This document shows positions 12,669-53,115 of a stretch of DNA of 64,000 nt, in pieces; positions within the stretch are counted from its first letter, which is position 1; the number at the start of each line of letters is the position of its first letter. The translations under genes and the position numbers were made by a program. The notes under the pieces were generated by a model. It saw nothing but the letters and a program-made list of their open reading frames with translations, did not search any database and was not told where the DNA came from. The DNA comes from Flavipsychrobacter sp. (GTDB lineage Bacteria > Bacteroidota > Bacteroidia > Chitinophagales > Chitinophagaceae): positions 27,455 to 91,454 of the forward strand of contig JBBCJI010000024.1 of the NCBI GenBank assembly GCA_037190845.1, read 5' to 3'.

Positions 12669-12676
12669 AGCAGATT

Positions 12677-13042: not shown

Positions 13043-13049
13043 TTCGGAT

Positions 13050-13430: not shown

Positions 13431-13436
13431 GGTTTG

Positions 13437-13919: not shown

Positions 13920-13938
13920 TGTGGTTTTACAGGTGTTA

Positions 13939-29519: not shown

Positions 29520-29523
29520 TGTT

Positions 29524-30237
29524 ATGAATATCTTCAAAAGAATTTTCAGGATAGGACAGGCCGAAATACATGCCGCTGTGGAGAAGATGGAAGACCCCGT
29601 GAAAATGACGGAGCAGGGGCTTCGGGAGTTGCGGGACGAGCTGACGGAAGCTACCGAGGCGTATGCAAAGGTGAAGGCGCTGGCCATACGTACCGCCAAT
29701 GAGCAAACGGCTTGTCAGAAGGAAGCTGCGGGTTATGCGGAAAAAGCAGTGCTGATCATGCAGAAGGCGCAGAACGGAGAGCTCGACAGTGAGAAGGCCG
29801 AAACGCTTGCTAAGGAAGCTTTGTCGCTGCGCCGGAAGCTGGGTGCGGAAGCGGAAGATCTCGGGCAACAGGCGCTTACGCATCAGCAGTCTGCAAAGGA
29901 GATGTTGAAAAATATCGAGGTGCTGAAGGAAAACCTGGCCAAATGGGAAAAAGAGCTCAAGACCCTCCGGGCGCGTGTGAAGGTGAGCAAGGCTACGGAG
30001 CAGGTGAATAAGCAACTGGCTCATATCGATGCCAACAGTACGATCGCCATGCTGGAGCGTATGAAGGAGAAGGTGGAGGATCAGGAGGCGCTGGCGCAGG
30101 CATATGGTGAGATCGCACAGGCAAAGAATGAACTGAAGGACGAGTTGGATAAAATATTAAAGGATGATACCTTGTCCATAGAAAAAGACCTGGAGCTTAT
30201 CAAAGAGCAGTTAGGCATCAGGAAAAAAACAGAATAA
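29524..30237 (+). CDS. pspA: PspA/IM30 family protein (phage-shock protein A)
   Basis: MNIFKRIFRIGQAEIHAAVEKMEDPVKMTEQGLREL... is a canonical PspA N-terminus, followed by about 230 aa of coiled coil. Confidence 0.9.
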   Translation: MNIFKRIFRIGQAEIHAAVEKMEDPVKMTEQGLRELRDELTEATEAYAKVKALAIRTANEQTACQKEAAGYAEKAVLIMQKAQNGELDSEKAETLAKEALSLRRKLGAEAEDLGQQALTHQQSAKEMLKNIEVLKENLAKWEKELKTLRARVKVSKATEQVNKQLAHIDANSTIAMLERMKEKVEDQEALAQAYGEIAQAKNELKDELDKILKDDTLSIEKDLELIKEQLGIRKKTE

Positions 30238-30246
30238 CAGATCAAT

Positions 30247-30927
30247 ATGCTGGCAAATTTAGCAAACCTCTTATTCCATCCGGTATCGAACGCGATCATG
30301 ACCGTGCTGACGGGCATCACGGCGCTGTATTGGATATTCACTTTTATCGCGGGCGATTTTCTGGGTGACCTGGATTTTTCTCCCGATATCGATACCGGGG
30401 TGGATGTGGATACGGACACCGATGCGGACGTGGCCGACAATGCACCGGAGAAATCGTTCTTTGCCAAGGCGATGGAGTATATCAATGTGGGTAAGGTGCC
30501 TTTCATGGTGGTGTACAGCACGTTCAAATTCATTTCCTGGATACTGACGCTTGTGTCGTCCGTGTTGCTGGGTGCTGCATCCTGGGGCTGGAAGTCGGCT
30601 TTGCTATTGCTGCCGGTGTTTTTTGTGGCGTATTTCATTACGCGTTACGCCACCAAGCCTTTCATCAGAATCTACAGAGCTATGGGCTATACAGGGGAAG
30701 AAGCGCATGACCTGATCGGGCGTGTCGCGCAGATGCGGTCTGCTATTCAGGAGCAAAAGATAGGCTCCGCGGAGCTGGTGATCAAAAATGATGTGATCCG
30801 CATCAATGTGATGAGCAAGAGCGGCGCGCCTATCGCATACAATGCAGATGTGATGATCGCAGAAGAATCTAAAGACAAACGCTATTATCTGGTAGTGCCG
30901 GAAATCAATCTCAACAACGTAGTTTAA
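30247..30927 (+). CDS. YqiJ/NfeD-like membrane protein with C-terminal OB-fold
   Basis: TM helices plus a C-terminal beta-rich domain (GSAELVIKNDVIRINVMSK...). It sits directly upstream of a flotillin gene, as in E. coli yqiJ-yqiK. Confidence 0.7.
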   Translation: MLANLANLLFHPVSNAIMTVLTGITALYWIFTFIAGDFLGDLDFSPDIDTGVDVDTDTDADVADNAPEKSFFAKAMEYINVGKVPFMVVYSTFKFISWILTLVSSVLLGAASWGWKSALLLLPVFFVAYFITRYATKPFIRIYRAMGYTGEEAHDLIGRVAQMRSAIQEQKIGSAELVIKNDVIRINVMSKSGAPIAYNADVMIAEESKDKRYYLVVPEINLNNVV

Positions 30928-30977
30928 CCATTTTCATCAACCAATTTTAAACAATCACACTTAATCATTCAATCTCT

Positions 30978-33023: not shown

Positions 33024-33066
33024 ACAGTGCGGACCTGGTCTGCGATTTTAAACAAAGGAAACATGT

Positions 33067-37951: not shown

Positions 37952-39853
37952 TTAAAATAGTTTATTAATTTCGATAAACATTTTTTCAAAATTATCTAAT
38001 GTTGAGGCTGAAAAAAATGTCTTGTCTACGCCTAATTGGTTTAACTTATTTGCTGGTCTGTAATGATTAAATCTATCCTTACCAATTACTTTGTTTATTT
38101 GTTTTAGTATGGTATCAATGCTTGTATCAAGGTCTGTGACCTTTATTTCCGCAAACTCTTTGTCAAACGCAAGGTTAAATAGTTTTAGATATTCTTCTTT
38201 TGTAAACAGGTCTTCGATGTCAGCCGTTTTTGAGCCGTTATTGGAAAATTCATCAAAGAATCTGATGTTTTTGTCCTTGATTATTTTGTGACGAATTAAA
38301 TCTTCAACTCTTTGCTTGCCCTTTTGATCAGTGAACGTATCAAGTAGGCAAACAACATTCAATTTTTGGCCTCTAAGTAGTGAGATAAAAGTGGTAACCT
38401 TATCTAAACCTCCAACAGGAACGATTGTAATATTGTCCTTTAATTTACCCCGTTTTTCTATTTCAAGAATATTTGAAAGAACCGTTAAGTAAAGTAGATC
38501 CGCTGGACCCTCTACTAATAAATTGTGTTTTGAAATAAATAGATTTTGTGCAATGTCATATCCTAATGCAGCTTGTAAGGGGAATAAAGTATCTGGGTCT
38601 TTTTCTTGAATTGTATCTGAAATAATTGTTCCTTCATCAGTTTCAAGGCAAGTACGTACTCTATTTAATTTCTCTGACTCTACCATGAAAGGGGAATGAG
38701 TTGTATAGATGATTTGATATTTTTTTGAAAGATCTTCAATGAAACGAATTAGGTCGCTCTGTGCAGAAGCATGAAGATTTAACCCCGGCTCATCTAGTAG
38801 CAAAATGTAATCAGAATTTTTGTCTGCTTGAATTTTGCTAAACCAAATAATAAAGGAAAAAAACCAGTTAAAACCTTTGCTTCTTCTGTCAAGTGGAAGA
38901 GATATTTTGTGCCTTTGGCTTCTAACGCGAATGTCAAGATACTTTTGATTGTTTTTGTCTTGAATACGAAACTCAATGTCTAAATTCTTGTTAGTTGACC
39001 AATATTTAAAAATTTCGTTAGTAATCTTGTTTGAGGAAGCCTCAAGTAAAGCCACAAATCTTTCATAGTCGCTTGAATTAATGATTTCATCTGGTTTAAT
39101 CCTTGCTAATTCGAATAATGCTTTAGCAGTTTTGGATTTCTCATCATTAGTGCCATTGTTAAGTTCATTTATATCGATTTTCCCCCCTAAATGATAATAA
39201 TCGTCAAAGTACCAAAACTTAGGCATGTTCGGCTGAACCCAATTACGGAATATGTGATATCCTAAAGGATTTTGCCAGTTTGTTTTTGCGGCAGCATCTA
39301 CTAACTTCTTTACTTCTGTCTTTAATGCTGTCAAATCTGTGTCACCTTCTAATTGAGGTATTGCTTCAAGTTCAGAAAGTGAATTCAATTTGTTTATTAC
39401 CTCTCTGGTTTCCTTTGTTAACACTAATGACTGAATTTTAGCGTCTAAATATTTTTTTTGGTTAGCTCCAATGCCAGTAACTGTGTTGCCTTCTTTATAA
39501 TGATAGTTGTAAGTAAATTCTTTTGTTGTAAAAACACCTTTTCCGAATTCTGTGTCAATTTGCGAGAGAAGTTCGGTGCTAATTTCATAAGTACAATTAA
39601 GTATTTCCACATCTTCATCACTATTTTCAAAATCGACCAATTCATTCCTTGGAAAGTCTTGAGTTCTGTCAAACTTGAAATCTGCATCGTCTGTGAAATA
39701 ATTTGTCTTAGCAAGTGCTTGCAAAAAGCTGGTTTTACCTGATTCATTCATTCCGACAATTGTAGTAATTGAAGGTTCAATTTCTACACTTTGAGGTTTT
39801 TGGATGCTTTTGTACTTATTTAACGTAGCATTTTTAAGTTTAATATTCATCAC
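37952..39853 (-). CDS. OLD-family nuclease (N-terminal ABC-type ATPase + C-terminal TOPRIM)
   Basis: Walker A GMNESGKTSFLQAL, Walker B/D-loop ILLLDEPGLNLHASAQ, H-loop TTHSPFMV, then TOPRIM LLVEGPADLLYL ... CLLDTFTD. Local GC is about 25-30%, against about 50% in the flanks. Confidence 0.85.
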   Translation of the reverse strand: MMNIKLKNATLNKYKSIQKPQSVEIEPSITTIVGMNESGKTSFLQALAKTNYFTDDADFKFDRTQDFPRNELVDFENSDEDVEILNCTYEISTELLSQIDTEFGKGVFTTKEFTYNYHYKEGNTVTGIGANQKKYLDAKIQSLVLTKETREVINKLNSLSELEAIPQLEGDTDLTALKTEVKKLVDAAAKTNWQNPLGYHIFRNWVQPNMPKFWYFDDYYHLGGKIDINELNNGTNDEKSKTAKALFELARIKPDEIINSSDYERFVALLEASSNKITNEIFKYWSTNKNLDIEFRIQDKNNQKYLDIRVRSQRHKISLPLDRRSKGFNWFFSFIIWFSKIQADKNSDYILLLDEPGLNLHASAQSDLIRFIEDLSKKYQIIYTTHSPFMVESEKLNRVRTCLETDEGTIISDTIQEKDPDTLFPLQAALGYDIAQNLFISKHNLLVEGPADLLYLTVLSNILEIEKRGKLKDNITIVPVGGLDKVTTFISLLRGQKLNVVCLLDTFTDQKGKQRVEDLIRHKIIKDKNIRFFDEFSNNGSKTADIEDLFTKEEYLKLFNLAFDKEFAEIKVTDLDTSIDTILKQINKVIGKDRFNHYRPANKLNQLGVDKTFFSASTLDNFEKMFIEINKLF

Positions 39854-40028
39854 TCTTCGTTTTCGTAGTTATTTGAATTATTGTCTGATAGTATTACCAC
39901 TAAAGGCTTGGGTATTACCGAAGACGGAGTTCAATACAAAGCTCAATCTTAGAATCGAAATTCAACTTTGGACAAATGCCCAATCGAAGTTCTTCTGCCC
40001 ACTTTGGGTAATACCATGTTAGGGGCTT

Positions 40029-41168
40029 CTATTTTCTGTGATATACCGTCACCTTATTGTTTCTTAAAATCATTAAATAGTTTTTTACTTTGTAATCTTC
40101 CCCTTCTGCATTTTTAATTATTGCATCATAAGTATCATCTGTCAATACATTATAACCAATTCTGTCTTTACATTTTTGATAAACAGATTTCATAAATGAC
40201 TTATTTGCGGCATTCCCAATTAAGTAAATAGTTTCATTTCCATGGTTAATCTTTTCAATGTTTTTTATATAAGTTTGTTCTCCTAGGTTGTTTACTTTGT
40301 ATTGTTTACCAATAATTCTAATTGCAAATTTGCAATACTGTCCGTTAAAGTCATTTATTGAATCTTCTCGTAGTTTTCTATTTGCATAATTATTCAAATA
40401 GCTAATTAGCTGTTTGACTTCATTATATATTTTGTTAGCATCTCGTTTTTGAGCAAAAACTTTCTCTCCTAAAAATGTTAACTCTTGCACAAGTATTGGG
40501 TAGAATATTCCTGCTTTATCTATGTCGTGATATGTTTCAAATAGAGAGGCTATTTTATTATTATCCATCTTCTCTTTCATAAAATCTTGAACGAATTGAT
40601 CAAGAATTTCTGATTTTTCGTGTTTCAGAAGATCATAACAAGCGTATAAATCAAGCGATTCTCTCTGGTATTTGGCGATATATGATTTAGCTTTCCTTAA
40701 AAATGCGTAAGAAATAAATGCCAATGAAGCGTTAACAATGTTCTTGTTTTGATTATCACTCTTATGTAATCTAACTATTAGTTCACCATTTTTAATATAA
40801 GTCTCAGCATTTTGTTTTTCAACATCAACCCAAAAAATATTTATTTTATTAATGTCAATGTGTTTTACTTTTTTAGACACAGTTTTTAGATAGTCATTTA
40901 CTTTCCCTTGAAGGTCATACTTTATATATGTTTTGTCAAATTTATTCGAAACGTAATTCGCGAATCTGGTAATTAATGCAACAAGTTTTTCAAACTTTTC
41001 TGGATTTTTGAGATAATAAATAAAAAGTGCAATCAATGCTACAGTTGAAACAGTCCACATAGAAATATGCAAGTTGAAGTTAAAATTTATGTCGTCAAAA
41101 AGGCTAAAACTTGTGTTCATTAGCATATTCTGTAAATAGTTTAATTGCTTCTGGGCTGTCACAAACAA
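40029..41168 (-). CDS. Hypothetical protein with single N-terminal TM helix, unknown function, in OLD operon
   Basis: 379 aa, K/N/Y-rich and AT-rich, with TM segment MWTVSTVALIALFIYYL. The true start may be an internal Met at 41126 or 41057. It lies 175 nt upstream of the OLD gene on the same strand. Confidence 0.55.
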   Translation of the reverse strand: MFVTAQKQLNYLQNMLMNTSFSLFDDINFNFNLHISMWTVSTVALIALFIYYLKNPEKFEKLVALITRFANYVSNKFDKTYIKYDLQGKVNDYLKTVSKKVKHIDINKINIFWVDVEKQNAETYIKNGELIVRLHKSDNQNKNIVNASLAFISYAFLRKAKSYIAKYQRESLDLYACYDLLKHEKSEILDQFVQDFMKEKMDNNKIASLFETYHDIDKAGIFYPILVQELTFLGEKVFAQKRDANKIYNEVKQLISYLNNYANRKLREDSINDFNGQYCKFAIRIIGKQYKVNNLGEQTYIKNIEKINHGNETIYLIGNAANKSFMKSVYQKCKDRIGYNVLTDDTYDAIIKNAEGEDYKVKNYLMILRNNKVTVYHRK

Positions 41169-41394
41169 TTTTTATGTCACCTGATTCAGGAAAAATTGAA
41201 TAGAGGTTTTCAAAGGTGATTACTTTCCCTGTGAATTTACATTTTAATTTACCTTCATTTAATTTCTCTATCAGTCCTAAATTTTTGAGTAATTGATTTA
41301 GGTCTTCATCATGCACTGCGTTTAGGTTTCTTTTATTCATATCTCTGCCGTATGTAGTCTTCGTTTTTACTGGTAACTTGCATATACTTTCCAT
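41104..41394 (-). CDS. Small (96 aa) hypothetical protein, first gene of OLD operon
   Basis: Clean ORF with non-repetitive sequence, same strand and AT-rich composition. Its end overlaps or abuts the 379-aa gene. Confidence 0.45.
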   Translation of the reverse strand: MESICKLPVKTKTTYGRDMNKRNLNAVHDEDLNQLLKNLGLIEKLNEGKLKCKFTGKVITFENLYSIFPESGDIKIVCDSPEAIKLFTEYANEHKF

Positions 41395-41999: not shown

Positions 42000-42851
42000 A
42001 TGAAGATCATGGATGCCCCGATATACCCCGAACAGCAACAGCCTGCAGACGAGCTGAAGGAAACCCTTAACGCACTGCTCCGCATCGTACCCGCAGATAT
42101 GGTGTTCTGCAAAGACGGCTGCCTGTATATCGTACCCGGCGCCACGGCCGTCCATAGTGTGCACGAGTACAAGGTCATGCTCGACGGCGCCGACTGGAAT
42201 CGTACCGGCTATGTCTGGTCTTTATATGCGCTCGATGACATCCGCAGGGGCATAGACGAAGGGAGGCTGTTTTACAACACGGTGTTCGCCGCGCCCTGGC
42301 TGGTGTACGACAACGGCCGCTCGGCATTGCCGCTTCCCTTGCCCTTACGCGTAGCACAAACGCAGCAGCACGGCAGCGAAACGTTTGTTTTCGGCTACCG
42401 TCAATCGCAGACGTTCTACCGGTGCGCGGCTTCGCTTGGTTCGGCCGAAGAATCGGGCGTGGCGGCGTTTATGCTGCACCAGTCGGTGGAGCTGCTGTTA
42501 CGCGCCTTTATCATCGCCGTAACGGGTCAGGAGGTGAAAACGCATACCCTGTCCGACCTGATGAAGCATACGCTCCGTTATGCGCCGGGACTGAAAGCCT
42601 GTCGTACCGCTTCGGGCACATCGGTCCACCATCTGCCGGACCGGCTGGAAAAGGCTTATGTCTGCGGTCGGTATTCGCCGCATTTCCAGATTGCGCCGGC
42701 AATACTGCCGGAACTGTACGAACAGGTTGGGTTATTACAGGAGGCATTGAAAAAAACATTTGCCCGCCTGATGGAGGCGTATGGGCTTTGCGGCCGGCAG
42801 GAGGCTGCAGTGTTTCATAGATCGGAAGGGATGAAACGGATGTCTGCATAA
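42000..42851 (+). CDS. HEPN-like domain protein (N-terminal domain unassigned)
   Basis: C-terminal ~130 aa FMLHQSVELLLRAFIIAVTGQEVKTHTLSDLMKH...GRYSPH resembles a HEPN helical bundle with an R-x(3-6)-H motif. GC is about 60%. The C-terminal 130 aa are duplicated at 50412..50819. Confidence 0.5.
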   Translation: MKIMDAPIYPEQQQPADELKETLNALLRIVPADMVFCKDGCLYIVPGATAVHSVHEYKVMLDGADWNRTGYVWSLYALDDIRRGIDEGRLFYNTVFAAPWLVYDNGRSALPLPLPLRVAQTQQHGSETFVFGYRQSQTFYRCAASLGSAEESGVAAFMLHQSVELLLRAFIIAVTGQEVKTHTLSDLMKHTLRYAPGLKACRTASGTSVHHLPDRLEKAYVCGRYSPHFQIAPAILPELYEQVGLLQEALKKTFARLMEAYGLCGRQEAAVFHRSEGMKRMSA

Positions 42852-42874
42852 AGCCGGGTGGGCAGGAATCCGGG

Positions 42875-42996
42875 CCATCTTCCGGCAGACAATAAGTTTC
42901 GAGGGCTTGATCAGTCGGGCGACTTGGGGGTAGATGCTGATAATACCCAACTCGTTTAGCGAACATTCGGAAATGATCACGGGGTGGGTGACGAAG
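42875..42996 (+). repeat. Degenerate copy A of the last ~120 nt of the giant AAA gene (compare 37776..37896)
   Basis: By-eye alignment gives about 80% identity over ccatcttccggcaga...ggaaatgatc... It lies immediately after the stop of the HEPN-like ORF. Confidence 0.7.
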
Positions 42997-43115
42997 TTGT
43001 TGGCGAGTAAGATCAGCGGAACGTTATTGGAAGGGTGTAAAAGGTTTTCATCACTATGTGAATTATCAAAACTTTCATTTTTTGCAAGTTTTGATAATTT
43101 CAAAGCATATAGTAT

Positions 43116-43367
43116 TTAGCCATTTTTTTGCTTATCGGCTTTTAGCGCTGCCAAGTGCTTTTTTGCGTCGAAATTTTTGGCAATGCCGCTTTCAATTCCT
43201 ACGTGAATTGCATTTTTCAAAATTTGGATTTTGTTTTCTTCTTCTTCTAAGAGTCGAAGGCCGGCTCTGATTACTTCGCTTGCATTTTTGTAACGTCCCT
43301 GAGACACGCTATTATCAACAAATTCTTCAAAATAGTTTCCAAGTGATACGGATGTATTTCGTCCCAT
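43116..43367 (-). CDS. parD: ParD-type (RHH) antitoxin
   Basis: MGRNTSVSLGNYFEEFVDNSVSQGRYKNASEVIRAGLRLLEEEE is ParD/RHH-like. It is 95% identical to 51200..51451. Its cognate parE is reduced to 6 codons (MAKYYML*) at 43101..43121. Confidence 0.85.
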   Translation of the reverse strand: MGRNTSVSLGNYFEEFVDNSVSQGRYKNASEVIRAGLRLLEEEENKIQILKNAIHVGIESGIAKNFDAKKHLAALKADKQKNG

Positions 43368-43388
43368 GGTTTTGAATTTTTAATAAAG

Positions 43389-43405
43389 TTACCAATATTT
43401 GGTAA
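43389..43405. promoter_or_regulatory. Perfect palindrome TTACCAATATTTGGTAA upstream of parD, a putative autoregulatory operator
   Basis: Seen directly, 22 nt upstream of the parD start, and identical at 51473..51489. Confidence 0.5.
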
Positions 43406-43450
43406 CTCTGGTGCCGGTTTTGTGTTAAAGTTCATGCACACAGCAGCGTT

Positions 43451-43569
43451 TCCAGAAGGATAATAAGTTTGGAGGGCTTGGTCAGTCGGACGGCATGGCG
43501 CAGATGAAGATATGACTGTGCTCGTTTAACGGGCATCCGGAAATGATCGCGAGGGCTTTGAGGAAGCAG
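43451..43569 (+). repeat. Degenerate copy B of the giant gene 3' end (stop codon mutated TAG to CAG)
   Basis: ...ggaaatgatcgcgagggctttgaggaagcag against the original ...ggaaatgatcgcgaaggctttgaggaagtag. It is nearly identical to copy C at 51544..51653. Confidence 0.75.
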
Positions 43570-43633
43570 GCATTTGTGTCAGTTAGTGGAGATAGTTACT
43601 TTTATCCTATCCAAAGCGCCTTGAGGCTGGAAC

Positions 43634-44074
43634 ATGGACAAGCTAATGTTATCAATCGCAATAATTCCAGGGATCTGGATCGCCCTAAAGTTTAGCGGTG
43701 TTTTCCACCGGGTGATTGTCTTTGTGCTTGCCCTTTCTGTTGGATTGGTCTGGAGTGGAGAGCCGCGCATTATTACCGGCAGCTTCATTGCATTTACCTG
43801 TATGGCTATTGGGACAATGGTTTACGCATTGGCGGTTAAGGGGCTTAACAATTATGAAAGAATAAGCATTCTAACCATGGGCTTTTTCGTGGCGACGGGT
43901 TCGATTTTCAAACTTTTGCATTACCCCGGTGTCGGGTTGATCAGGTTAGCTATGGTCATACCTGTGGTCATGACGGTATTAGTCTTTGTGAAAGGCAGGA
44001 GACTAACCCGGGAAATGAGTTTTATGATCATCTGGCTGGTGTATGCGATGTCGGAATGCTTGAAGTTGTACTAA
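43634..44074 (+). CDS. Small 4-TM membrane protein of unknown family
   Basis: 146 aa. It is paralogous to 52594..53115 (shared FSGVFHRVI / RRLTREMSFMIIWLVYAMSE motifs), and its first 50 codons are duplicated at 51718..51873. Confidence 0.6.
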   Translation: MDKLMLSIAIIPGIWIALKFSGVFHRVIVFVLALSVGLVWSGEPRIITGSFIAFTCMAIGTMVYALAVKGLNNYERISILTMGFFVATGSIFKLLHYPGVGLIRLAMVIPVVMTVLVFVKGRRLTREMSFMIIWLVYAMSECLKLY

Positions 44075-44084
44075 CCGATTGAAG

Positions 44085-44630
44085 TTATTTCCATTCCCAT
44101 TTTTCGTCAATGTCATATTTGATTTTCAGATAGGCCGCAAGTTCATCGAGTCTGGTTTTGACGTTGGCAATGTTTACTATTTTGTCCTTTGGCAGTATAA
44201 ATGATTGACCGCCTCTTAGTTTGATAAGTATCATCGTTGGTATCTCGGATATTTCCTCAAGCTCTGTGGTTAACACTTTGCTTTCACTGCCATTTTCCTT
44301 TGCTAAAATAAAATCGTTACTCAGCTCCAATGTTCCAACTTTCCCGATCCGGTCTTTATAGTTTTCCTTAATGAACGCCCTATAATGTTTAATGTAACGT
44401 CGTTTCTCCCAAGCCGGATAAAAGAAAAACCATAGAAGTCCGATAATGATAAAAATAGTTGCCAGTGAAAATTGGTCATCAGAGAAAAATAGAAGTCCCA
44501 AGGCGCCATAAGCTAAAGGAAAAATCGTCTTGTTTTTTTGTCTTTTCTTTTTAATCCGCTCAGATTGTGACGCAAGAAAAAGTTGATGCGTCAGGAGATC
44601 ATGTTCGTTGATTGTATATTCTATTGTCAT
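44085..44630 (-). CDS. YcxB-like small membrane protein
   Basis: 181 aa with two central TM helices. It is AT-rich and is the last gene of the minus-strand helicase cluster. Confidence 0.5.
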   Translation of the reverse strand: MTIEYTINEHDLLTHQLFLASQSERIKKKRQKNKTIFPLAYGALGLLFFSDDQFSLATIFIIIGLLWFFFYPAWEKRRYIKHYRAFIKENYKDRIGKVGTLELSNDFILAKENGSESKVLTTELEEISEIPTMILIKLRGGQSFILPKDKIVNIANVKTRLDELAAYLKIKYDIDEKWEWK

Positions 44631-44765
44631 AGTCTTACGTGAAGTTGTGTGATTATTTTGCGCTTAGTACGCTGAATTTTGAATTAAATAAAAGGCCAGC
44701 CGTCGTAAATGCTCAATAGAGGTACGTTAGCCCTGCATTTGGTTATACGTTGTTAGTGAGTATTT

Positions 44766-46097
44766 TTAATTCTTTTCTCTATTTTTTCTTTGTCTGTTCC
44801 AATCTCCTATCCAACGCATTGGAACAGGTCCTTCATATAATTGTTTATAAAAATGTCTCCAATTCCATGCACTTGTCCCGTCAGTTAGCTTAAGTTCGGG
44901 TATCCACACTTTATCTTCAGGGAAATACGTTGTCGTCCAAACGCCGTCTTTATATGCTTCGATATAACATTTTCCATAGTAGGCAAGTACTGATGGAAAT
45001 AGGCTGTCAAAAAGATTGTAGTTTGTTCCGTTCCATTTGAGTGCTTCGTCCACTAAATCCATTCCTGTGCTGTCAAATGAAAGTTGCTCCTTGTCGAAGT
45101 TGATCAAGGAAGGTAATTGTTCAATAAGTTGTGGCACAAAGCCTGAAAAATTTTGTCCGTATTTATCAGATGTTTTTTGATAAAAATGTTCATGTGTTAT
45201 GGGTTTGTCCATTAATTCTCTGTACTTCTTTTCAGCATCTTTCACTTGTTCAAGGTTGTCATAAATACGTAAACTTAAAATCGACATTTTATTGCCTGCT
45301 CCGTTCTTTTGCTTTTCTTCATCAATAAGTATGTAATAACCCTTTTCAGACTCGTATAAATTCCCGAAAAAGTTGGAAACATATACTTTTCGTTCGGTAA
45401 GCGATAGTCTGTGATGTTTAATTATATCCTTCATGTATTTAGGATAAATCAGATGAAAATCATGTTCGTAGTCCACAAGTCTGTCTCCCGAGGCAATAAC
45501 TTTCATTAAATATTCTTCATCGTCTGAACCATATGCTTCTTCTAGTACAGATGTTTTTTCGGAGGCTAGGGTTTTGATGTCTGGAAAGATAGCTGCTGCT
45601 TGAAAATTTTTAGATTTGTCTAAGAGCAAAATTTGTGCTGTGTTAAGCTGATATACTTCAAAGTCATACCATTGAGGTAAGTCGCTTGTGTACTGTGTTA
45701 ATCTTTTAGGACTTTCTTTTTCAATTATTTGCTTGCCTTCGTCAAATGATAATTCAATTTTGTACGAAACATTTTTTTTTAGAAAATCAATTGTGTTTTT
45801 TACAAACCTAACTCTGTGTAATCTGTTGAAATGCTCTAAGTTTTCAACTAATACAGCTTGTTTATCGTAAAACTCAATCAGGATTTTTCCGTCAGAAAGC
45901 CGGTAAGTTCGTGCTGTCCATTTCTTACGAATAGAATTATCTTGCTCTCCCTTATATTGTTTCAGTGTATTTGTCTTTTCATTACTGTCAAGAAGCGTTA
46001 CGGTAATTGGCAACTTGTCAAGAGTTGTAATTTCCAACTTTTGAGCAAAACTGCTAATCGTTATCAATGTAAAGATGATGGTTAATAATTGCCTCAT
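44766..46097 (-). CDS. Secreted hypothetical protein (signal peptide MRQLLTIIFTLITISSFAQ)
   Basis: About 443 aa from the internal Met. The track start at 46241 adds an Arg-rich extension and overlaps the upstream gene. Confidence 0.55.
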   Translation of the reverse strand: MRQLLTIIFTLITISSFAQKLEITTLDKLPITVTLLDSNEKTNTLKQYKGEQDNSIRKKWTARTYRLSDGKILIEFYDKQAVLVENLEHFNRLHRVRFVKNTIDFLKKNVSYKIELSFDEGKQIIEKESPKRLTQYTSDLPQWYDFEVYQLNTAQILLLDKSKNFQAAAIFPDIKTLASEKTSVLEEAYGSDDEEYLMKVIASGDRLVDYEHDFHLIYPKYMKDIIKHHRLSLTERKVYVSNFFGNLYESEKGYYILIDEEKQKNGAGNKMSILSLRIYDNLEQVKDAEKKYRELMDKPITHEHFYQKTSDKYGQNFSGFVPQLIEQLPSLINFDKEQLSFDSTGMDLVDEALKWNGTNYNLFDSLFPSVLAYYGKCYIEAYKDGVWTTTYFPEDKVWIPELKLTDGTSAWNWRHFYKQLYEGPVPMRWIGDWNRQRKNREKN

Positions 46098-46233
46098 TGC
46101 ATGGCGCTTGTGTGAGGACGCTGCATTCGGGCGACTTTTACGAGTACGAAGTCTCAATTTATACATCAGCTCGCTTATTGCTGAGCTGTTCCTGTGGTGC
46201 CTTCTTGTCTGTCTACTTGTGAATGTCTGCATA

Positions 46234-46731
46234 TTACTCACCCCAAAAATGATAAACTTTTAATGCCGTCCCTTCTCGGTTTAGTACAACGAAACCATTT
46301 TCAAACGTTTCTCGGGTATTGCCTGGCTCTACTTTCAACCAAGTTGTCTTGAAAGTAAATATTCTATTGTCGTTTGATTTCAGTTTGGGTAAAACGTTTT
46401 CGTTTAATAAGTCAAAGGAATAGTCGTCACTTTTTAGTTTAGAAAAGCTGTTGCTGGTTAAAGTGTCTGCCGGGAATAAAATACTGTCTAAAAGCTCCCA
46501 TTCATTTATAGCTGCAAATGCTATTAGTTCTTTGTTTGTAAAAGTACCGCTAGTGTTACTTTGCCAGTTTATTTCCCTGTGTCCTCCCCAAGGCCCCTGG
46601 TCACTATTTTGGTTTGTGATTAAGTCTTTATGGAAATCTGTCCAGAAACCAGCAGGCGTTGATCTATTACAAGAAGTTGCTAAAACGGCTACACAAAAAA
46701 TGGTCAGGAGATATTTCATTATCCGTTTCAA
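46234..46731 (-). CDS. Hypothetical lipoprotein
   Basis: Signal peptide with lipobox-like LATSC; 165 aa. Confidence 0.55.
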   Translation of the reverse strand: MKRIMKYLLTIFCVAVLATSCNRSTPAGFWTDFHKDLITNQNSDQGPWGGHREINWQSNTSGTFTNKELIAFAAINEWELLDSILFPADTLTSNSFSKLKSDDYSFDLLNENVLPKLKSNDNRIFTFKTTWLKVEPGNTRETFENGFVVLNREGTALKVYHFWGE

Positions 46732-46839
46732 TATTGTCTGTTTGTTTCGTCTTTTAATGATTCTTCATTTTAGTTGCATTTTCTACTTCGCGTATGTTCA
46801 TACGAAGAACATCACTTTCCCGCTTTAGTCCCACCATTG

Positions 46840-47514
46840 TTATAGACCGATTTTATTGTCATAACTGAAATATGCTTCAATTTCTGCTCTGTGATATTCA
46901 ACAATCCAGTCATTTCTTTTTATGTAAATGTCCCGAATTTTGTCTGCTTTGTCGCTCCAAACAAAACATCCTCTGTCATCATACATTTGAAATGCTTTGT
47001 CGGTTGCCGGATCGAAAAAGAAAATTCTTTGGTTTATACTCGGGTTAAAGCCCATTTCGTTGTTGGCAATTCCATTCAGAATGTTTTTGACATTGATGTC
47101 TTTAATAGGCAGTTTGCCAATTATAATTCCGACGTTCTCTTTTTCTGGAACGTCATTCCCGTTTTCATCTGTTGTGAAGTAGCGAGTGTTTACCGTTTCC
47201 AATTTATTATAGAATTGCTCGAAGCTGTCGGCAGGAAATTGTTTATGCAAGTAGTCGTTTGAGGCGCTAAAAATATCTTCGTCTTGGTATTCATAAATAA
47301 GAATGAAAATTTCGTGTGTCGAGTCATTAAATGTCTCGTTGAATATTGTCAAAGCCCTATTCGTCGAGTAAGTTACCCGCTCAATTGTCCCATTTTCTTT
47401 TTCTTCTCCAAGTTCAAACCGAATGTGAACATGTCCTCCAAGTGAATGTTCTGTGTCTATTTTCGATCCGGTGTAAACCCTGTCTAAATATGATTGTAAC
47501 TCTTGTCTTAACAT
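46840..47514 (-). CDS. Hypothetical cytoplasmic protein encoded directly downstream of the helicase
   Basis: 224 aa with no signal peptide and no recognisable catalytic motif. Confidence 0.55.
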   Translation of the reverse strand: MLRQELQSYLDRVYTGSKIDTEHSLGGHVHIRFELGEEKENGTIERVTYSTNRALTIFNETFNDSTHEIFILIYEYQDEDIFSASNDYLHKQFPADSFEQFYNKLETVNTRYFTTDENGNDVPEKENVGIIIGKLPIKDINVKNILNGIANNEMGFNPSINQRIFFFDPATDKAFQMYDDRGCFVWSDKADKIRDIYIKRNDWIVEYHRAEIEAYFSYDNKIGL

Positions 47515-47593
47515 TTTGTTCTTGCCTTGTCAGGTTGTTAAAGTGGTTGGTTATTGTGCTTGGATGGGTTGGAGCAGATGAAGCGGTGCTTCC

Positions 47594-50317
47594 TCACCTC
47601 CACTTATTCACATGCTCAATCTTGTCTTCAAATTGTGCAGCCAATGATTTAATCCTTGACTTCAGTAATAATTGTCTTCCCTCGATTGTTCGTGTAAATA
47701 TCAGGTCGCAGGCGCCAACAAGCTGTTCCCATCGGCTTTTGAAATATTCAGCCAGGTTCTTGTTTTTTCCGAGTACCTCAGGAACGGCATGATAATCTTT
47801 TTGTTTCATGAACAGCATAAACCTGTTCTTCCGGATAATTACATATCTGGGGTTCTCAATGGGGGCAATTATTTCCTGCAGCGCATTTATGAAGGCTGAC
47901 TGCTCAAAAGTGGTTCCTCCTTCCAGATGGCAATAAACGGTGCCCCAACGATTCACCGAAGATGCCACTTTCAACTGTGTGACTTCCGTATGAATGGTTC
48001 CTGCCTTAATTAACGACTGCATAAGCGTCTCGCCAATCCGTTGCATGTCTTTTGCAATATCCCGGTATTTGAAGTAGAGTCTGAGTGTTTTGTATGTCAG
48101 TCTGCCGTAAATTACTATTCCTACTGTCCCCAGCAAGGCGATGAAAATATACAGATCATTTATTGTTCTGAAGTTTTTTGCTGCGCGTCCCAGCCCCTGC
48201 AGGCTTTCTAAACCAAAACCTATTAATCCGGAACTCAATGTAGCAAAAAGATTTGCAATTGTCTTTCTCAGGTACATGGATTTGACCTCGCGGTATGATC
48301 TTTCTTCCGGGAATGGGATTTTTATTTCTTCTGTAAGGGTTACGCCGGTTGCCAGCGCTTCTTTCCAGCGCTGTTTCAGACTTTCTCTATCACCGGCATA
48401 AGTAAACATTTCCGTGTTTTTCCTCGCTGCTACAACCTCCTGATGTATGTCTTCCGGTAAATTGAGTCGGCCTATCCCGTTTTCTATTCCGGGTTCTTGG
48501 CTAAAGGAAACCCCTACAAAACTTCTGAAACGACGCTTTAGTAAATCAAAATCCTCGCCTCCTGTCTCCGATGTAGGATCGATACAGACTATATGCCAGA
48601 TATTTCCTGTTTTTTCCTGATTGTCTTTTTGTGTTCGAATCGCTCTCCCGCGCATTTGATTGGACAAAACGAAAGAGCCCACAAAGCTTCCCAGTATTAA
48701 GGAATTGATGGCGGGCGCATCCCACCCTTCTCCCAAGAGTGATTTTGTGCCAATTAAAACTTCAATTTCACCCCGTTGAAAAATCTGGGTAACAATATGA
48801 ACAATATCATTTTTCAGCTGGCCGGTCGGATTGATTATCACGTAATTTGTATCAAAAGGGGCAGTACTCGAATTGATCTGTGTAATTCCATATTTGGCCG
48901 CTTTTGCTTCAAATGCAGGATAAGCTTTTGTGGGAATAATGATTACGGATCCGGTAAGTACGGCCATCTTTTTGTTATCTGTGTTGGACCGTCTTAGTTT
49001 TTCAAAAATGGGTATTACGCCTATCTTGTTTAATTCAAGTGGGTTATCCGGAGTGCTTGTGAGAAACTCTTTCCGGATAAAGTCGGAAAGGATGACCAGG
49101 CGGAGCGAGTTGCCTAACTGTTTATATTCAAAGTCAACAATCTCTTTAATGCTGTTGAGTTTGCTGATACTGGATGTCAGAAATCCGGTTAGTTTTTTGT
49201 TGTGGGAAAAGTTGATTTTTCTTCTTTCAATGGCTCCTGATCTGCGCAGCCGGTTTTCAAGGTGTTTTCTATGTGTTTCAAATTCTTTGAAATGTTCTTT
49301 CCCTTTGTAGAGATAGAAGTCGAGTAGCGTTTCCGTCCATTCGTAGTCGAGTTCCGGTATTTCGATTTTCTTATCGCCTATTACTTCAAGATGGGTTTCG
49401 GGTATATCTCTGCCGTTGGCGTGCAGGAAAATCAAGGAAGCCGAATAAGAGGATAGGTTGTTATAGATCCAGTCTAACTGATCTGCAGGGTTTAACCAGA
49501 TAGGGTGTTGTTCTATCGCCCGGACAATGGTTTCATCACGCTTTATTTCCTGAAACAGTTGCTCCATCCGCAGTCTGAAATCAGCGATGCTTTGGTTTTC
49601 ATCTTCTGTCGGAAAGGTAAAATGCACATAGTCCTGATGTGGGCACAGGTCACCTTCTATCACTAATTCAGGTACAGAAATCTCGGTGTCTACGGGGCCG
49701 TTGAGTGTAATGTATCGCTGCCATTCAGTTGCAGTAACATCATAGGGTGGGGTTGCTGTAAGCCCGACGATCACCGGGTCTGTTTTTTCTTTAACCATTG
49801 TCAACGTTCGCCACCATTCACTTTTCAGGTGGTGAGCCTCGTCTACAACGATAGTTCTGATGTTTTGTTCGATTAGTTTGCTTACAACGTTTTCAAGATT
49901 CTGATTTGTGGAAAGGCCATTGCCATTTTCTGTTGCTATCTCCTCATCTTCAGGGTCTTCATCCTGAATGTTCTGATTGTTGCAGGCGGCGTGCATTCCC
50001 TGGTAGGTAGCGACTGTTAGAAATTTCGGATTCCTGATATCTGTAGAAATCCATTCCGGAGTTATAGTGGTTTGAAGAAAGAGTTCACAAAAGCGTTGTA
50101 TCCACTGGTTGCGAATGGCTATTGACGGGGCAAGTATAAGTGTTGCATTGTTCAGCCGGATAGCTACTTCCAACCCTAAGACCGTCTTACCCGACCCCGG
50201 TGGAGCGATTACGTGTAAATGTTTATCCGTTAAGTGTGTTTCAAGTTCATCAAGTACCCGTTGTTGATATTTTCTCCAACGGTATTTGAATTTTATGTCT
50301 TTGGGAAATTCAGTCAA
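47594..50317 (-). CDS. SF2 DEAD/DEAH-box helicase (ResIII-like N-domain) with C-terminal two-TM segment and about 180-aa tail domain
   Basis: Motif I APPGSGKT, motif II VVDEAHH, motif III TATPP, motif VI QMRGRAIRT. Residues ~690-740 form two hydrophobic helices (LIGFGLESL..., IFIALLGTVGIVIYG). Confidence 0.85.
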   Translation of the reverse strand: MTEFPKDIKFKYRWRKYQQRVLDELETHLTDKHLHVIAPPGSGKTVLGLEVAIRLNNATLILAPSIAIRNQWIQRFCELFLQTTITPEWISTDIRNPKFLTVATYQGMHAACNNQNIQDEDPEDEEIATENGNGLSTNQNLENVVSKLIEQNIRTIVVDEAHHLKSEWWRTLTMVKEKTDPVIVGLTATPPYDVTATEWQRYITLNGPVDTEISVPELVIEGDLCPHQDYVHFTFPTEDENQSIADFRLRMEQLFQEIKRDETIVRAIEQHPIWLNPADQLDWIYNNLSSYSASLIFLHANGRDIPETHLEVIGDKKIEIPELDYEWTETLLDFYLYKGKEHFKEFETHRKHLENRLRRSGAIERRKINFSHNKKLTGFLTSSISKLNSIKEIVDFEYKQLGNSLRLVILSDFIRKEFLTSTPDNPLELNKIGVIPIFEKLRRSNTDNKKMAVLTGSVIIIPTKAYPAFEAKAAKYGITQINSSTAPFDTNYVIINPTGQLKNDIVHIVTQIFQRGEIEVLIGTKSLLGEGWDAPAINSLILGSFVGSFVLSNQMRGRAIRTQKDNQEKTGNIWHIVCIDPTSETGGEDFDLLKRRFRSFVGVSFSQEPGIENGIGRLNLPEDIHQEVVAARKNTEMFTYAGDRESLKQRWKEALATGVTLTEEIKIPFPEERSYREVKSMYLRKTIANLFATLSSGLIGFGLESLQGLGRAAKNFRTINDLYIFIALLGTVGIVIYGRLTYKTLRLYFKYRDIAKDMQRIGETLMQSLIKAGTIHTEVTQLKVASSVNRWGTVYCHLEGGTTFEQSAFINALQEIIAPIENPRYVIIRKNRFMLFMKQKDYHAVPEVLGKNKNLAEYFKSRWEQLVGACDLIFTRTIEGRQLLLKSRIKSLAAQFEDKIEHVNKWR

Positions 50318-50411
50318 GTAAGCCTTAGTTTTTATTGTACAGGCAGTAATATACGGCTTTGTTTTTAATTGTTGTTTTATGTAGGCTTTGCGCGTGACAG
50401 GCTGACTTTCA

Positions 50412-50819
50412 GTGTGCTTATTTCATAATGGTTTGTTCCTGCTGCACCAGTCGGTGGAACTGCTGTTACGCGCCTTTATCATTGCCGTAACGGGGCAGGA
50501 GGTGAAAAGGCATATCCTGTCGGATCTGATGAAGCATACGCTCCGTTATGCGCCGGGACTGAAAGCCTGTCGTACCGCTTCAGGCACATCGGTCCACCAC
50601 CTGCCGGAACGGCTGGAAAAGGCCTATGTCTGCGGTCGGTATTCGCCGCATTTCCAGCTTGCGCCGGCAACACTGCCGGAACTGTACGAACAGGTAGGGT
50701 TATTACAGGATGCATTGAAAAAAGCATTTGCCCGCCTGATGGAGGCGTATGGGCTTTGCGGACGGCAGGAGGCGCCAGTGTTTCATGCATTAGAAGGGAT
50801 AAAACGGATGTCTGCATAA
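50412..50819 (+). pseudogene. 3' fragment of HEPN-like gene (copy of 42472..42851), GTG start only
   Basis: About 93% identical to the C-terminal 130 aa of 42000..42851. Homology begins abruptly at 50442. Confidence 0.5.
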
Positions 50820-50907
50820 ACGCATGTGGGCAGGAATTTAGGCCACCATTCTTTTGTCTTCTTTTGGATACCTCAGATTTTTCTGAGCAAGAGAACAAAA
50901 CGAGTGT

Positions 50908-51207
50908 TTATTCACTCAATCGCTTTTTCAAATCCATCCTTTCGTGTAAAATTCTAATTATTTCAACTTCTTTATCGCTGACTTTTCGATAAAAGACAAT
51001 GTGCTTTCCAGCTCCAAATCCAACAAGCTCTTTTGAAATTTCTTCGTAGATTTTTCCGATAGTTGGTCTTTTTGCGATTGCTTCAAACGCTTCAATTAAA
51101 AGTGCATAGTACTGGTCTGCCTGATTTTCAGACCAGATCTCATAAGTATAGTCCCAAATTTTGGATAGGTCTTCGACTGCTTTATTGGTTAAATAGTATT
51201 TAGCCAT
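50908..51207 (-). CDS. parE: ParE/RelE-family toxin
   Basis: 99 aa. MAKYYLTNKAVEDLSKIWDYTYEIWSENQADQYY...IVFYR is a ParE-like fold pattern. It overlaps parD by 8 nt. Confidence 0.8.
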   Translation of the reverse strand: MAKYYLTNKAVEDLSKIWDYTYEIWSENQADQYYALLIEAFEAIAKRPTIGKIYEEISKELVGFGAGKHIVFYRKVSDKEVEIIRILHERMDLKKRLSE

Positions 51208-51451
51208 TTTTTTGCTTATTGGCTTTTAGCGCTGCCAAGTGCTTTTTCGCGTCGAAATTTTCGGCAATGCCGCTTTCAATTCCTTCGTGAATTGCATTTT
51301 TCAAAATTTGGATTTTGTTTTCTTCTTCTTCTAAGAGTCGAAGACCGGCTCTGATTACTTCACTTGCATTTTTGTAACGTCCCTGAGACACACTATTATC
51401 AACAAATTCTTCAAAATAGTTTCCAAGTGATACGGATGTATTTCGTCCCAT
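51200..51451 (-). CDS. parD: ParD-type (RHH) antitoxin
   Basis: 83 aa, near-identical to 43116..43367. Confidence 0.85.
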   Translation of the reverse strand: MGRNTSVSLGNYFEEFVDNSVSQGRYKNASEVIRAGLRLLEEEENKIQILKNAIHEGIESGIAENFDAKKHLAALKANKQKNG

Positions 51452-51472
51452 GGTTTTGAATTTTTAATAAAG

Positions 51473-51489
51473 TTACCAATATTTGGTAA
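51473..51489. promoter_or_regulatory. Palindrome TTACCAATATTTGGTAA (second copy of parDE operator)
   Basis: Seen directly. Confidence 0.5.
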
Positions 51490-51543
51490 CTCTGGTGTCG
51501 GTTTTATGTTAATGTTCATGGACACCACAGGATTTTCGGTGGG

Positions 51544-51653
51544 GCAATAAGTCTGGAAGGTTTGGTTGGTAGGATGGCTTGGGGCAGATGAAGATACGAC
51601 TGTGCTTGTTTAACGGGCATCCGGAAATGACCGCGAGGGCTTTGAGGAAGCAG
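51544..51653 (+). repeat. Degenerate copy C of the giant gene 3' end
   Basis: Aligns to 37776..37896 and is almost identical to copy B. Confidence 0.75.
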
Positions 51654-51717
51654 GCATTTGTATCAGTTAATGGAGATAGTTACTTTTATCTTATCCAAAG
51701 CGTCTTGAGGCTGGAAC

Positions 51718-51873
51718 ATGGACAAGCTAATGTTATCAATCGCAGTAATTCCAGGGATATGGATCGCCCTAAAGTTTAGTGGTGTTTTCCATCGCGTGAT
51801 TGTCTTTGTGCTTGCCCTTTCTGTTGGATTGCTCTGGAGTGGAGATCCGCGCATTATTACAGGTAGCTCTTGA
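51718..51873 (+). pseudogene. Truncated 5' fragment (51 codons) of the 43634-type membrane protein gene
   Basis: MDKLMLSIAVIPGIWIALKFSGVFHRVIVFVLALSVGLLWSGDPRIITGSS*. Identity with 43634..44074 ends at the duplication boundary. Confidence 0.5.
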
Positions 51874-52593: not shown

Positions 52594-53115
52594 TTATAGA
52601 GTGTGTGATAAGTGTGTGGTTGGCAGCATTTGTCTATACCATATCAACGAGAAAAGGACAGCCAGTTCATATAGAGATAAGACCATCCACACCAGCATAA
52701 AGCTGAACTCCTTTGTATGTATGCTTCTTCTCCGGAAGAGGCAGTATAGGTATAACAACACAGGCGCCATCAGGACATAATGTAATGCCAGGGCGCCCGA
52801 CCAGTGCTGGATTCTGAAAATAAAAGCGATGATAAACGCCAGGCCTAAAGTTGCTATGGATATTCTTTCCGGAATGCCGATATTCCACATGAGTAAAGCA
52901 TACTGGGTGGTCAGCAACGCCATCAGGAGCAGGACGCCGATACATATCGGTATCCCCATCCCCGGAATTAACCATACAGAAATGAAACTCCCGAACAGCC
53001 CCCAGGAAATGATCTTATGGAAGACGCCTTGATGGCGAAAGGATAATACAGCGCCCGTTACTGCAGCAATCGAGGATATAATATAAAACACCATGGAATG
53101 TGAAAGATAGATCAT
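52594..53115 (-). CDS. Small multi-pass membrane protein, inverted paralog of 43634..44074
   Basis: 173 aa with shared FRHQGVFHKI and RRRSIHTKEFSFMLVWMVLSLYEL motifs. Confidence 0.6.
   Translation of the reverse strand: MIYLSHSMVFYIISSIAAVTGAVLSFRHQGVFHKIISWGLFGSFISVWLIPGMGIPICIGVLLLMALLTTQYALLMWNIGIPERISIATLGLAFIIAFIFRIQHWSGALALHYVLMAPVLLYLYCLFRRRSIHTKEFSFMLVWMVLSLYELAVLFSLIWYRQMLPTTHLSHTL

Follow-up and report, generated by a model that had tools for sequence, protein, structure and literature searches.

Bacteroidota are among the bacteria in which integrons have been reported, and CALINs, that is, attC clusters without an integron-integrase, are a known category of element (PMC8618304). 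A comparable organization, rAID-1, was described in Bacteroidales as low-GC co-directional arrays with integron-like intergenic repeats and a recombinase of the XerD family (Ross et al., 10.1101/471110). To qualify, an array must have on its 5' side a co-directional recombinase that is XerD-like and shares more than 44% identity with BF9343_RS08045, and after it two or more co-directional genes with a GC content of 41% or less, many of them homologues of immunity genes (10.1101/471110). In parallel, defence cassettes were reported in integrons (10.1101/2024.07.02.601686), and Tmn, a membrane-embedded P-loop NTPase of the YobI/KAP type, was found to provide anti-phage defence as a single gene (PMC13001434). 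The present analysis deals with a stretch of 64,000 nucleotides (nt) of DNA from Flavipsychrobacter sp. (contig JBBCJI010000024.1, positions 27,455 to 91,454), referred to below as the window, in which an earlier note had singled out a cluster of five minus-strand genes headed by a superfamily 2 (SF2) helicase as a possible defence system. With a probability of about 0.72, the cluster consists of unrelated, individually mobile integron-type cassettes lying side by side in a decayed array and is not one system. The array is best read as one without integrase, located in a variable island downstream of a gene for a 1609-amino-acid (aa) DUF3686/AAA protein, and it is best classed as a decayed representative of an element type already known, with one interesting cargo gene.

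The five genes of the cluster, with positions counted within the window, are the following.

47594-50317, minus strand: helicase gene, 907 aa with a TTG start, from the list of open reading frames (ORFs) and its motifs

46840-47514, minus strand: p224 gene, a DUF3885 protein of 224 aa

46234-46731, minus strand: p165 gene, a lipoprotein-like product with no family assigned

44766-46097, minus strand: p491 gene, taken as the real product of about 443 aa; the long ORF of 491 aa spans 44766-46241

44085-44630, minus strand: p181 gene, a protein with two transmembrane (TM) helices and a weakly YcxB-like C-terminus, from Pfam and hydropathy

Much of what the earlier note had described was found again. 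All five ORFs are present where it had placed them on the minus strand, they are co-directional with short spacers of 79-135 nt, and their GC content is indeed low (0.35-0.43 compared with 0.51 in the large flanking genes). The cluster does lie between two copies of a HEPN/ParDE module, which form direct repeats of about 1.3 kb with 92-93% identity, and PADLOC recognises no defence system in the gene set. The note had also regarded a helicase with unfamiliar partners within a variable island as a hallmark of defence. The island is real, with an OLD-family nuclease, HEPN genes and two ParDE modules nearby, but the partner genes are unlinked elsewhere.

It is on this last point that the proposal of a five-gene co-functional system headed by the helicase fails the synteny test of the note itself. 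Neighbourhoods were collected for 31 genome loci of the helicase, with flanks of up to 10 kb per side where the contig permitted, and searched by BLASTP at an E-value of 1e-3. Further loci were searched by BLAST (L034-L037) or through inspection of their called genes (L065-L074), which brings the overall number of helicase loci to about 45. Homologues of p224, p165, p491 and p181 were absent from the 31 genome loci, no partner homologue was found by BLAST in L034-L037, and no called gene of L065-L074 resembled DUF3885 or the gene of about 440 aa. All-against-all clustering of the neighbour ORFs of the 31 loci revealed no conserved neighbour of the helicase and gave only antisense shadow ORFs inside the helicase gene itself, and no neighbour gave a HamA (DUF1837) or Dru match in Pfam or PADLOC. 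In the same way, no other cluster gene was present in 21 metagenome loci of p224 (47-89% identity) or in six loci of p491 homologues (60-73% identity), whose contexts vary. Altogether, pairs of the five genes co-occurred in none of about 70 loci carrying one homologue, and the same gene arrangement was seen only in two contigs of the same strain.

The attC sites of integrons are imperfect palindromes of about 60-140 nt that lie 3' of each cassette and carry the core sequences R'' (RYYYAAC) and R' (GTTRRRY). In the flanks of p224 homologues, GTTATAAGCC was observed about 45 nt upstream of the ATG and its complement GGCTTATAAC right after the stop codon, with a second CGTT about 130 nt beyond GGCTTATAAC. 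The stretch between the cores after p224 homologues folds as a long imperfect hairpin (-35 to -62 kcal/mol), and an alignment of nine such sites gave a consensus stem in which 16 of the 19 pairs display compensatory changes. With the covariance model R1, built from this alignment of p224-flank sites, 57 sites were retrieved at E<1e-5, spread over 22 loci; without exception they share the strand of the genes, and the ones examined are intergenic. AAC was present in 52 of 53 sites and GTT in 55-57 of 57, and such near-invariant positions correspond to the R''/R' core signature of attC. A strict regular-expression scan for RYYYAAC...GTTRRRY found nothing because the sites follow the consensus only loosely.

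These attC-like sites were observed on both sides of single genes. In Sphingobacterium sp. R2 (L034, CP142884), sites at 9838-9979 and 12739-12870 flank a helicase gene located at 10001-12721. Six metagenome contigs with differing neighbours (L069-L074) encode an identical helicase protein, and there too the gene has a site on either side; the same was observed for p491 homologues in four loci (L059, L060, L063 and L064). When the identical helicase cassettes of L069-L074 and L034 were compared, divergence began exactly at GTT on both sides, with a breakpoint at G|TT: the downstream flanks are the same up to ...CCGTT and then diverge, and the upstream flanks diverge directly 5' of GTTGGGCGTAAGTT. 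Moreover, R'' of the helicase cassette (CGCCCAAC) is the complement of its R' (GTTGGGCG). Exact breakpoints at G|TT, complementary cores and varied neighbours are together the defining properties of integron cassettes. In other loci from Bacteroidota and metagenomes, homologues of the helicase, p224 and p491 are thus single-gene cassettes bounded by attC-like imperfect palindromes of about 140 nt. Helicase loci from Clostridia, from Vibrio and from Bacteroidota with a housekeeping context are devoid of R1 sites, apart from a single marginal match of 29.8 bits in L016, so the Bacteroidota helicase subfamily looks like the mobilised one. Small ORFs of 50-52 aa lying over the helicase stop codon in L034 and L036 were considered as a coupled partner and rejected; their sequences are unrelated, and the ORF of L034 sits on an attC site.

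A tyrosine recombinase gene is located divergently upstream of the L034 array. It scores 166 bits as XerA/integron integrase, 146 bits as integron integrase TIGR02249 and 142 bits as XerD, all below cut-off, and with this ambiguity the arrays could belong to an XerD-like, rAID-1-type relative of integrons. The L034 array itself (6951-16000) contains, between attC-like sites, the helicase, a gene resembling Zn-dependent phospholipase C, and adjacent SMODS and S_4TM genes, and it sits within a mobilisable element that carries a relaxase, MobC and a second integrase. The pairing of SMODS with S_4TM is typical of the cyclic oligonucleotide-based anti-phage signalling system (CBASS). In two of the metagenome contigs, a PF00144 beta-lactamase-family gene of 463 aa is the next cassette directly 3' of the helicase cassette (L071, 4168-5559; L072, 3466-4857), and in L069 the same slot holds a DUF6090 gene. 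A long array was also seen in L063 (CP060698, 2519-11837), where an attC-like variant of about 200 nt recurs at a spacing of about 590 nt (9871, 10462, 11053, 11655) across a region without called gene (9341-12026). This array further holds SocA/Panacea, SUKH-like, zeta-toxin and AAA_21 genes and adjoins Dnd genes.

Within the window, traces of such sites were found at three places, all on the minus strand.

39894-40028, minus strand: the sole attC-like site detectable in the window, from the covariance model R1

44631-44765, minus strand: decayed attC remnant 3' of p491, from its similarity to an attC arm of L059

47515-47593, minus strand: collapsed junction between the helicase and p224 genes, with the p224 cassette leader and a degenerate R'

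The site at 39894-40028 reached 30 bits with R1, with an E-value of 2e-4 over 409 kb and of 9e-6 over 19 kb with filters off, the setting on which sensitivity to decayed sites in the window rests. It follows the p379 gene directly on the 3' side, precedes the OLD nuclease gene by about 40 nt and has the orientation of the cluster. Its R'' reads CCCTAAC and the outer stem of 9 bp (GGTATTACC/GGTAATACC) is kept, and its R' has degenerated to TTTAGTG. The p379 region (40029-41394, minus strand) has a GC content of 0.28 and encodes one N-terminal TM helix; a 96-aa ORF overlaps p379 upstream, and the two may together make up one cassette, of which the surviving attC-like site would be the end. No family was matched by either of them in Pfam, NCBIfam, PADLOC or PHROGs.

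At the junction between the helicase and p224 genes, a degenerate R' core was observed (AATAACCAACC, compared with GTTATAAGCC). The junction matches the 5' end of the L042 cassette at 35 of 47 positions and the similarity ends at R'; with only 79 nt it is too short for an attC of about 140 nt. This 5' boundary of p224 is the sole recognisable cassette boundary in the window. Behind p491, the region 44631-44765 agrees at 40 of 56 positions with one arm (R''-L'') of the attC found after the L059 homologue of p491, and no hairpin fold is left there (z-score -0.3). Finally, the 5' leader of the window helicase bears a faint similarity to the cassette leader (21/37). The history suggested by these remnants would be one in which the genes of the window entered as cassettes through insertion by a tyrosine recombinase, after which the attC hairpins would have been deleted or eroded and the gene order frozen. 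In this scenario p165 and p181 are assumed to have been cassettes as well.

The cargo gene of most interest is the helicase. Its 907-aa translation carries the motifs APPGSGKT, VVDEAHH, TATPP and QMRGRAIRT, as the earlier note had read them, and the SF2 set is thus complete. Pfam gave ResIII (2.5e-21), DEAD (2.9e-12) and, at a weak score, Helicase_C; Walker A (motif I), DEAH (II), TAT (III) and the arginine finger QxxGRxxR (VI) are invariant across the family, which belongs to SF2. In an AlphaFold2 (AF2) model with a well-modelled core and a mean predicted local distance difference test score of 75, a RecA-like lobe 1 (residues ~1-195) is followed by a helical insertion (~196-405) and by lobe 2 (~406-600). 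The nearest folds of the core in Foldseek are XPB, Hef, RIG-I and FANCM (E ~1e-11, 13-16% identity). The NCBIfam scores of the helicase are far under every equivalog cut-off (XPB 44.5 against 610 bits, Hef 30.5 against 610, RadD 16.4 against 720). In PADLOC-DB v2 the best match was PbeA (3.4e-12), restricted to the N-terminal lobe 1, and DinG, Cas3 and REase_I matches were weak.

Homologues of the helicase number thousands and their distribution is patchy. Many of them are 74-79% identical across Sphingobacteriia, Cytophagia, Flavobacteriia, Bacteroidia and Chlorobiota, which fits a recent horizontal spread, and those of Clostridia and Vibrio are 34-40% identical. The TTG start (50315-50317 in the window) is also used in all eight homologous helicase loci inspected and is preceded by a conserved cassette leader of about 30 nt (GTTGGGCGTAAGTTAAAACAACACACTACAGA). 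An identity as plasmid or phage gene was ruled out by rarity: the helicase was found on 7 of 72,556 plasmids, mostly megaplasmids, and in the phage set on two short unannotated 'phage' contigs.

The earlier note had drawn attention to two TM helices near residue 700 and to a further C-terminal domain, which occupy the following positions.

48092-48265, minus strand: predicted transmembrane hairpin, residues ~685-742, from hydropathy and positional conservation

47597-48085, minus strand: C-terminal alpha/beta domain of the helicase, residues 745-907

A strong hydrophobic segment is located at residues 718-742 (Kyte-Doolittle 1.96), with a weaker one before it at about 688-706. In an alignment of 21 relatives from Bacteroidota, Clostridia and Vibrio (34-76% identity), two hydrophobic helices occur at a conserved position with unconserved sequence, and their hydropathy goes up to 3.3-3.5 in Clostridia. 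The AF2 model shows, with low confidence, a pair of long helices at 683-715 and 719-772. The helicase thus appears to be membrane-anchored through a hairpin; the pair of helices announced by the note is conserved among the relatives, but the first is weak in the window protein and the modelling of both is uncertain. Segments rich in Lys and Arg on both flanks of the hydrophobic pair would fit a hairpin with the helicase core and the C-terminal domain both in the cytoplasm. The opinion that an SF2 helicase with the look of a membrane anchor is unusual stands. The C-terminal domain is also present and of alpha/beta type, with a size of about 160 aa (745-907). It has no Pfam domain, and among 869 clusters at 50% identity it was always C-terminal, in full-length proteins of 850-980 aa and with no alternative fusion partner seen, so the architecture of the helicase is fixed.

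The helicase occurs in defence islands and in cassette arrays, and also in housekeeping neighbourhoods. Its defence neighbours include SMODS and S_4TM in L034, a type I restriction-modification system in L036 and the OLD nuclease in the window. It is best read as a self-contained single-gene unit combining an XPB/Hef/RIG-I-like double-strand translocase core, a membrane hairpin and a C-terminal domain. By likeness to the defence cassettes of integrons and to Tmn, a stand-alone role in defence is plausible. The most likely role, although a tentative one, would be that of a stand-alone membrane-tethered ATP-dependent nucleic-acid translocase acting on incoming or foreign DNA at the envelope, that is, of a single-gene anti-phage or anti-plasmid defence cassette. 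A somewhat more speculative proposal would make it the founder of a new class of single-gene immunity, in which an SF2 translocase held by its hairpin at the inner membrane would meet entering phage or plasmid DNA and would strip or block this DNA, or damage the membrane abortively through the hairpin and the C-terminal domain; the class would have spread in Bacteroidota as an integron-type cassette of 2.9 kb and would have older non-cassette relatives in Clostridia and Vibrio. No characterised member of this family, with SF2 motor, TM hairpin and C-terminal domain, was found. As the helicase works as a single gene, it is an easy target for anti-phage and anti-plasmid testing.

The four other proteins are of diverse kinds, and PADLOC, PHROGs and NCBIfam returned nothing informative for any of them. 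p224 is a DUF3885 protein (PF13021; 4.6e-38, 131.7 bits against a threshold of 23, 189 of 189 profile positions), a family for which a literature search gave two incidental mentions only. On long metagenome contigs its neighbours include ordinary accessory genes such as DJ-1/PfpI, HxlR, MarR, Pirin and SDR, by which the idea that p224 marks immunity islands was discarded. p165 has an N-terminal signal peptide ending in Cys, looks therefore like the lipoprotein of 165 aa foreseen by the earlier note, and has no Pfam match. The secreted protein of about 443 aa was likewise borne out: the signal peptide of p491 corresponds to residues 48-66 of the long ORF, and its homologues number 236, of which the best 120 are 423-530 aa long at 56-75% identity; homologues are typically given at 430-460 aa and begin at the MRQLL signal peptide. 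Homologue length and start thus point to a real product of about 443 aa, also without Pfam match. As to p181, its layout of two TM helices plus a C-terminal domain is compatible with YcxB (PF14317), as had been suggested, but the score remains under the Pfam cut-off (19.5 bits against 23.3, E 8.4e-4).

Around the cluster, three further features have to be considered.

42472-43784: left copy of the direct repeat, in which the HEPN gene is represented by its 3' part, ParE is deleted and ParD is present; it also includes a pseudo-3'-end (120 nt) of the 1609-aa gene and the beginning of p146

50440-51868: right copy of the direct repeat, in which the HEPN gene is truncated at its 5' end and both ParE and ParD are present, together with a pseudo-3'-end (120 nt) of the 1609-aa gene

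37952-39853, minus strand: gene for an ATPase/TOPRIM nuclease of the OLD family, situated distally in the minus-strand array at its end, from Pfam and PADLOC

The two copies match at 42472-42877 with 50440-50845 (92%) and at 43109-43784 with 51193-51868 (93%), and bracket a segment of 6.65 kb. Each HEPN/ParDE module is damaged where the other is intact. The left one has a full HEPN (283 aa) and has kept the ParD antitoxin but lost ParE by a deletion of about 116 nt (42852-43115, compared with 50820-51199 on the right), and the right one has an intact ParDE and a HEPN which, where it borders the helicase block, is cut to 135 aa. The left HEPN gene (42000-42851, plus strand) has a GC content of 0.57, compared with 0.28-0.39 in its neighbours and a window mean of 0.455, which suggests an origin unlike that of the surrounding cassettes. 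The OLD-family nuclease was recognised through AAA_15, AAA_21 and OLD-like TOPRIM in Pfam and through Old in PADLOC (4e-26), with GajA weaker and no UvrD-like partner; as its gene is about 40 nt from the only surviving attC-like site, it may be a cassette too.

On the plus strand, a block at 29437-37896 contains genes of 266, 226, 681 and 1609 aa, the last of which (33067-37896) encodes a DUF3686 'DNA repair ATPase' with DUF7902 and AAA. PADLOC gave only a faint JetC-like match, for the first gene, and the block may be a separate system bordering the island. The 3' end of the 1609-aa gene, about 120 nt, is present three times (37777-37896, 43450-43569 and 51534-51653); the additional copies share 80% and 73% identity with the real end of the gene, and each lies just outside a ParD promoter. 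This looks like a repeated displacement of the end of the gene by successive insertions or recombinations at a hotspot. Finally, two paralogous multi-pass membrane proteins without family match were observed at 43634-44074 (plus strand, 146 aa) and 52594-53115 (minus strand, 173 aa), with 32% identity; the first 50 codons of the 146-aa gene are inside the direct repeat, and this fragment recurs at about 51718-51868.

Several observations weigh against a decayed cassette array. The window holds one attC-like site only, of 30 bits and with a degenerate R', where a formal CALIN call needs at least two, and none of the spacers within the cluster folds like an attC. No tyrosine recombinase was detected in the 64 kb by tblastn with one integrase only (the L035 recombinase), and no Phage_integrase match was seen with Pfam in the subset of window ORFs scanned. 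p165 and p181 are without homologues in the fetched loci, their cassette status being assumed. The L034 recombinase is frameshifted, and its match to TIGR02249 is split in two and reaches 146 bits against a cut-off of 265. With regard to a defence role, which is a separate matter, some helicase homologues reside in conserved housekeeping neighbourhoods (L037; L065-L068), no nuclease or other effector fold was seen in the C-terminal domain, and no system of PADLOC-DB v2 matches the helicase or the other four proteins. As to the route of arrival, homologous recombination between the bracketing repeats may have brought the block in. According to this explanation, the block 43785-50439 would have arrived in one piece by homologous recombination or segmental duplication, and a cassette history would be irrelevant to its arrival. 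The repeats of 1.3-1.4 kb bracket it exactly, the right HEPN is truncated at its edge and the end of the 1609-aa gene is in triplicate; yet the separate mobility of each gene elsewhere and the remnants of cassette boundaries between the genes are left unexplained. An arrival in one piece is unlikely as the account of the cluster, and it is compatible with a cassette origin rather than exclusive of it. It is quite unlikely that the repeats of about 140 nt are the sites of a distinct XerD-like system of Bacteroidota such as rAID-1, of which the cluster would be a decayed array. The L034 recombinase scores about equally as XerA/integron integrase, TIGR02249 and XerD, and rAID-1 provides a precedent in Bacteroidales with integron-like intergenic repeats (10.1101/471110). 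However, this recombinase is divergent as in classical integrons, unlike the co-directional one of rAID-1; the AAC...GTT cores, palindrome length and G|TT breakpoints fit the definition of attC; and Pfam found no immunity-protein families among the window genes.

Two other explanations bear on function. The helicase would, in one of them, be a DNA repair or RNA helicase of housekeeping type whose hydrophobic helices are buried and do not form an anchor. Its nearest matches in sequence and fold (XPB, Hef, RadD, FANCM), the low AF2 confidence in the helices and, in 23 contigs, a conserved chromosomal neighbourhood with an SDR gene on one side and MoxR/PpiC genes on the other argue for it. This is nevertheless improbable given the patchy distribution, the identity of 74-79% across classes, the carriage as a mobile cassette and the distance to the equivalog cut-offs, and given a hydropathy of 2-3.5 over about 20 residues, twice, with conserved position and unconserved sequence, which is typical of TM helices. 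The other explanation is the one closest to the earlier note, namely a genuine lineage-specific multi-gene system in which the helicase would sense DNA and the lipoprotein, secreted and YcxB-like proteins would act at the envelope. Co-directional genes with short spacers, a defence-flavoured island and an identical order in two contigs of the same strain speak in its favour; against this, no two of the genes occur together elsewhere, the helicase, p224 and p491 are independent cassettes in other loci, and no PADLOC system was recognised. Such a system is therefore highly improbable, and the cluster is preferably seen as cassettes that came to lie side by side in a decayed array.

This reading removes a tempting false positive, as the apparent new multi-gene system becomes an accident of cassette accretion. 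Co-directional genes without assigned function beside a helicase in a defence island are a trap for guilt by association, and decayed integron-type arrays can mimic operons, and the surviving evidence amounts to a few tens of bases at gene junctions. Moreover, the gathered loci reveal an active-looking cassette system in Bacteroidota and environmental metagenomes, with attC-like sites of about 140 nt. This system moves large cargo such as the helicase gene of 2.9 kb, and the same arrays hold CBASS-type domains (SMODS, S_4TM) and a beta-lactamase-family domain.

Among known elements, the cluster resembles a CALIN or a sedentary chromosomal integron by its co-directional genes of unrelated function, which in such elements are often of unassigned function, secreted or toxin-antitoxin genes, by the interspersed ParDE modules and by the lack of an integrase found nearby; its homologues share with them the single cassettes with palindromes of R'' ...AAC and R' GTT... 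and breakpoints at G|TT. Unlike in a CALIN, nearly all attC sites of the window are eroded or deleted, and the window would fail a call based on attC. The related L034 array departs from classical integron arrays by its recombinase, frameshifted and below the integron-integrase cut-off, and the complete integron, with an adjacent IntI bearing the specific insertion and with attI, was recognised neither in the window ORFs searched nor in this recombinase. Typical integron cassettes are also much smaller than the helicase cassette. With rAID-1 the window has in common a Bacteroidota host, low-GC co-directional genes and integron-like intergenic repeats, but no recombinase was found by tblastn and no recognisable immunity family by Pfam, which places it outside the definition of rAID-1.

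As regards the helicase, PbeA of the candidate PbeABCD system, HamB of Hachiman and DruE of Druantia are likewise SF2 helicases of defence islands, whereas their partners PbeBCD, HamA and DruA-D are absent in the window and in every homologous locus. XPB/Rad25, Hef/FANCM and RIG-I share with it the RecA-like ResIII/DEAD core, all motifs and the helical insertion between the lobes; they differ in having neither a TM hairpin nor such a C-terminal domain, and the helicase in turn is devoid of their Bax1, nuclease or CARD partner domains. Tmn and other KAP-type NTPases belong to a P-loop group that is not SF2 and has no sequence relationship to the helicase. Yet they too unite an NTPase motor and TM helices in one polypeptide, and thereby offer a precedent for membrane-anchored, stand-alone defence ATPases.

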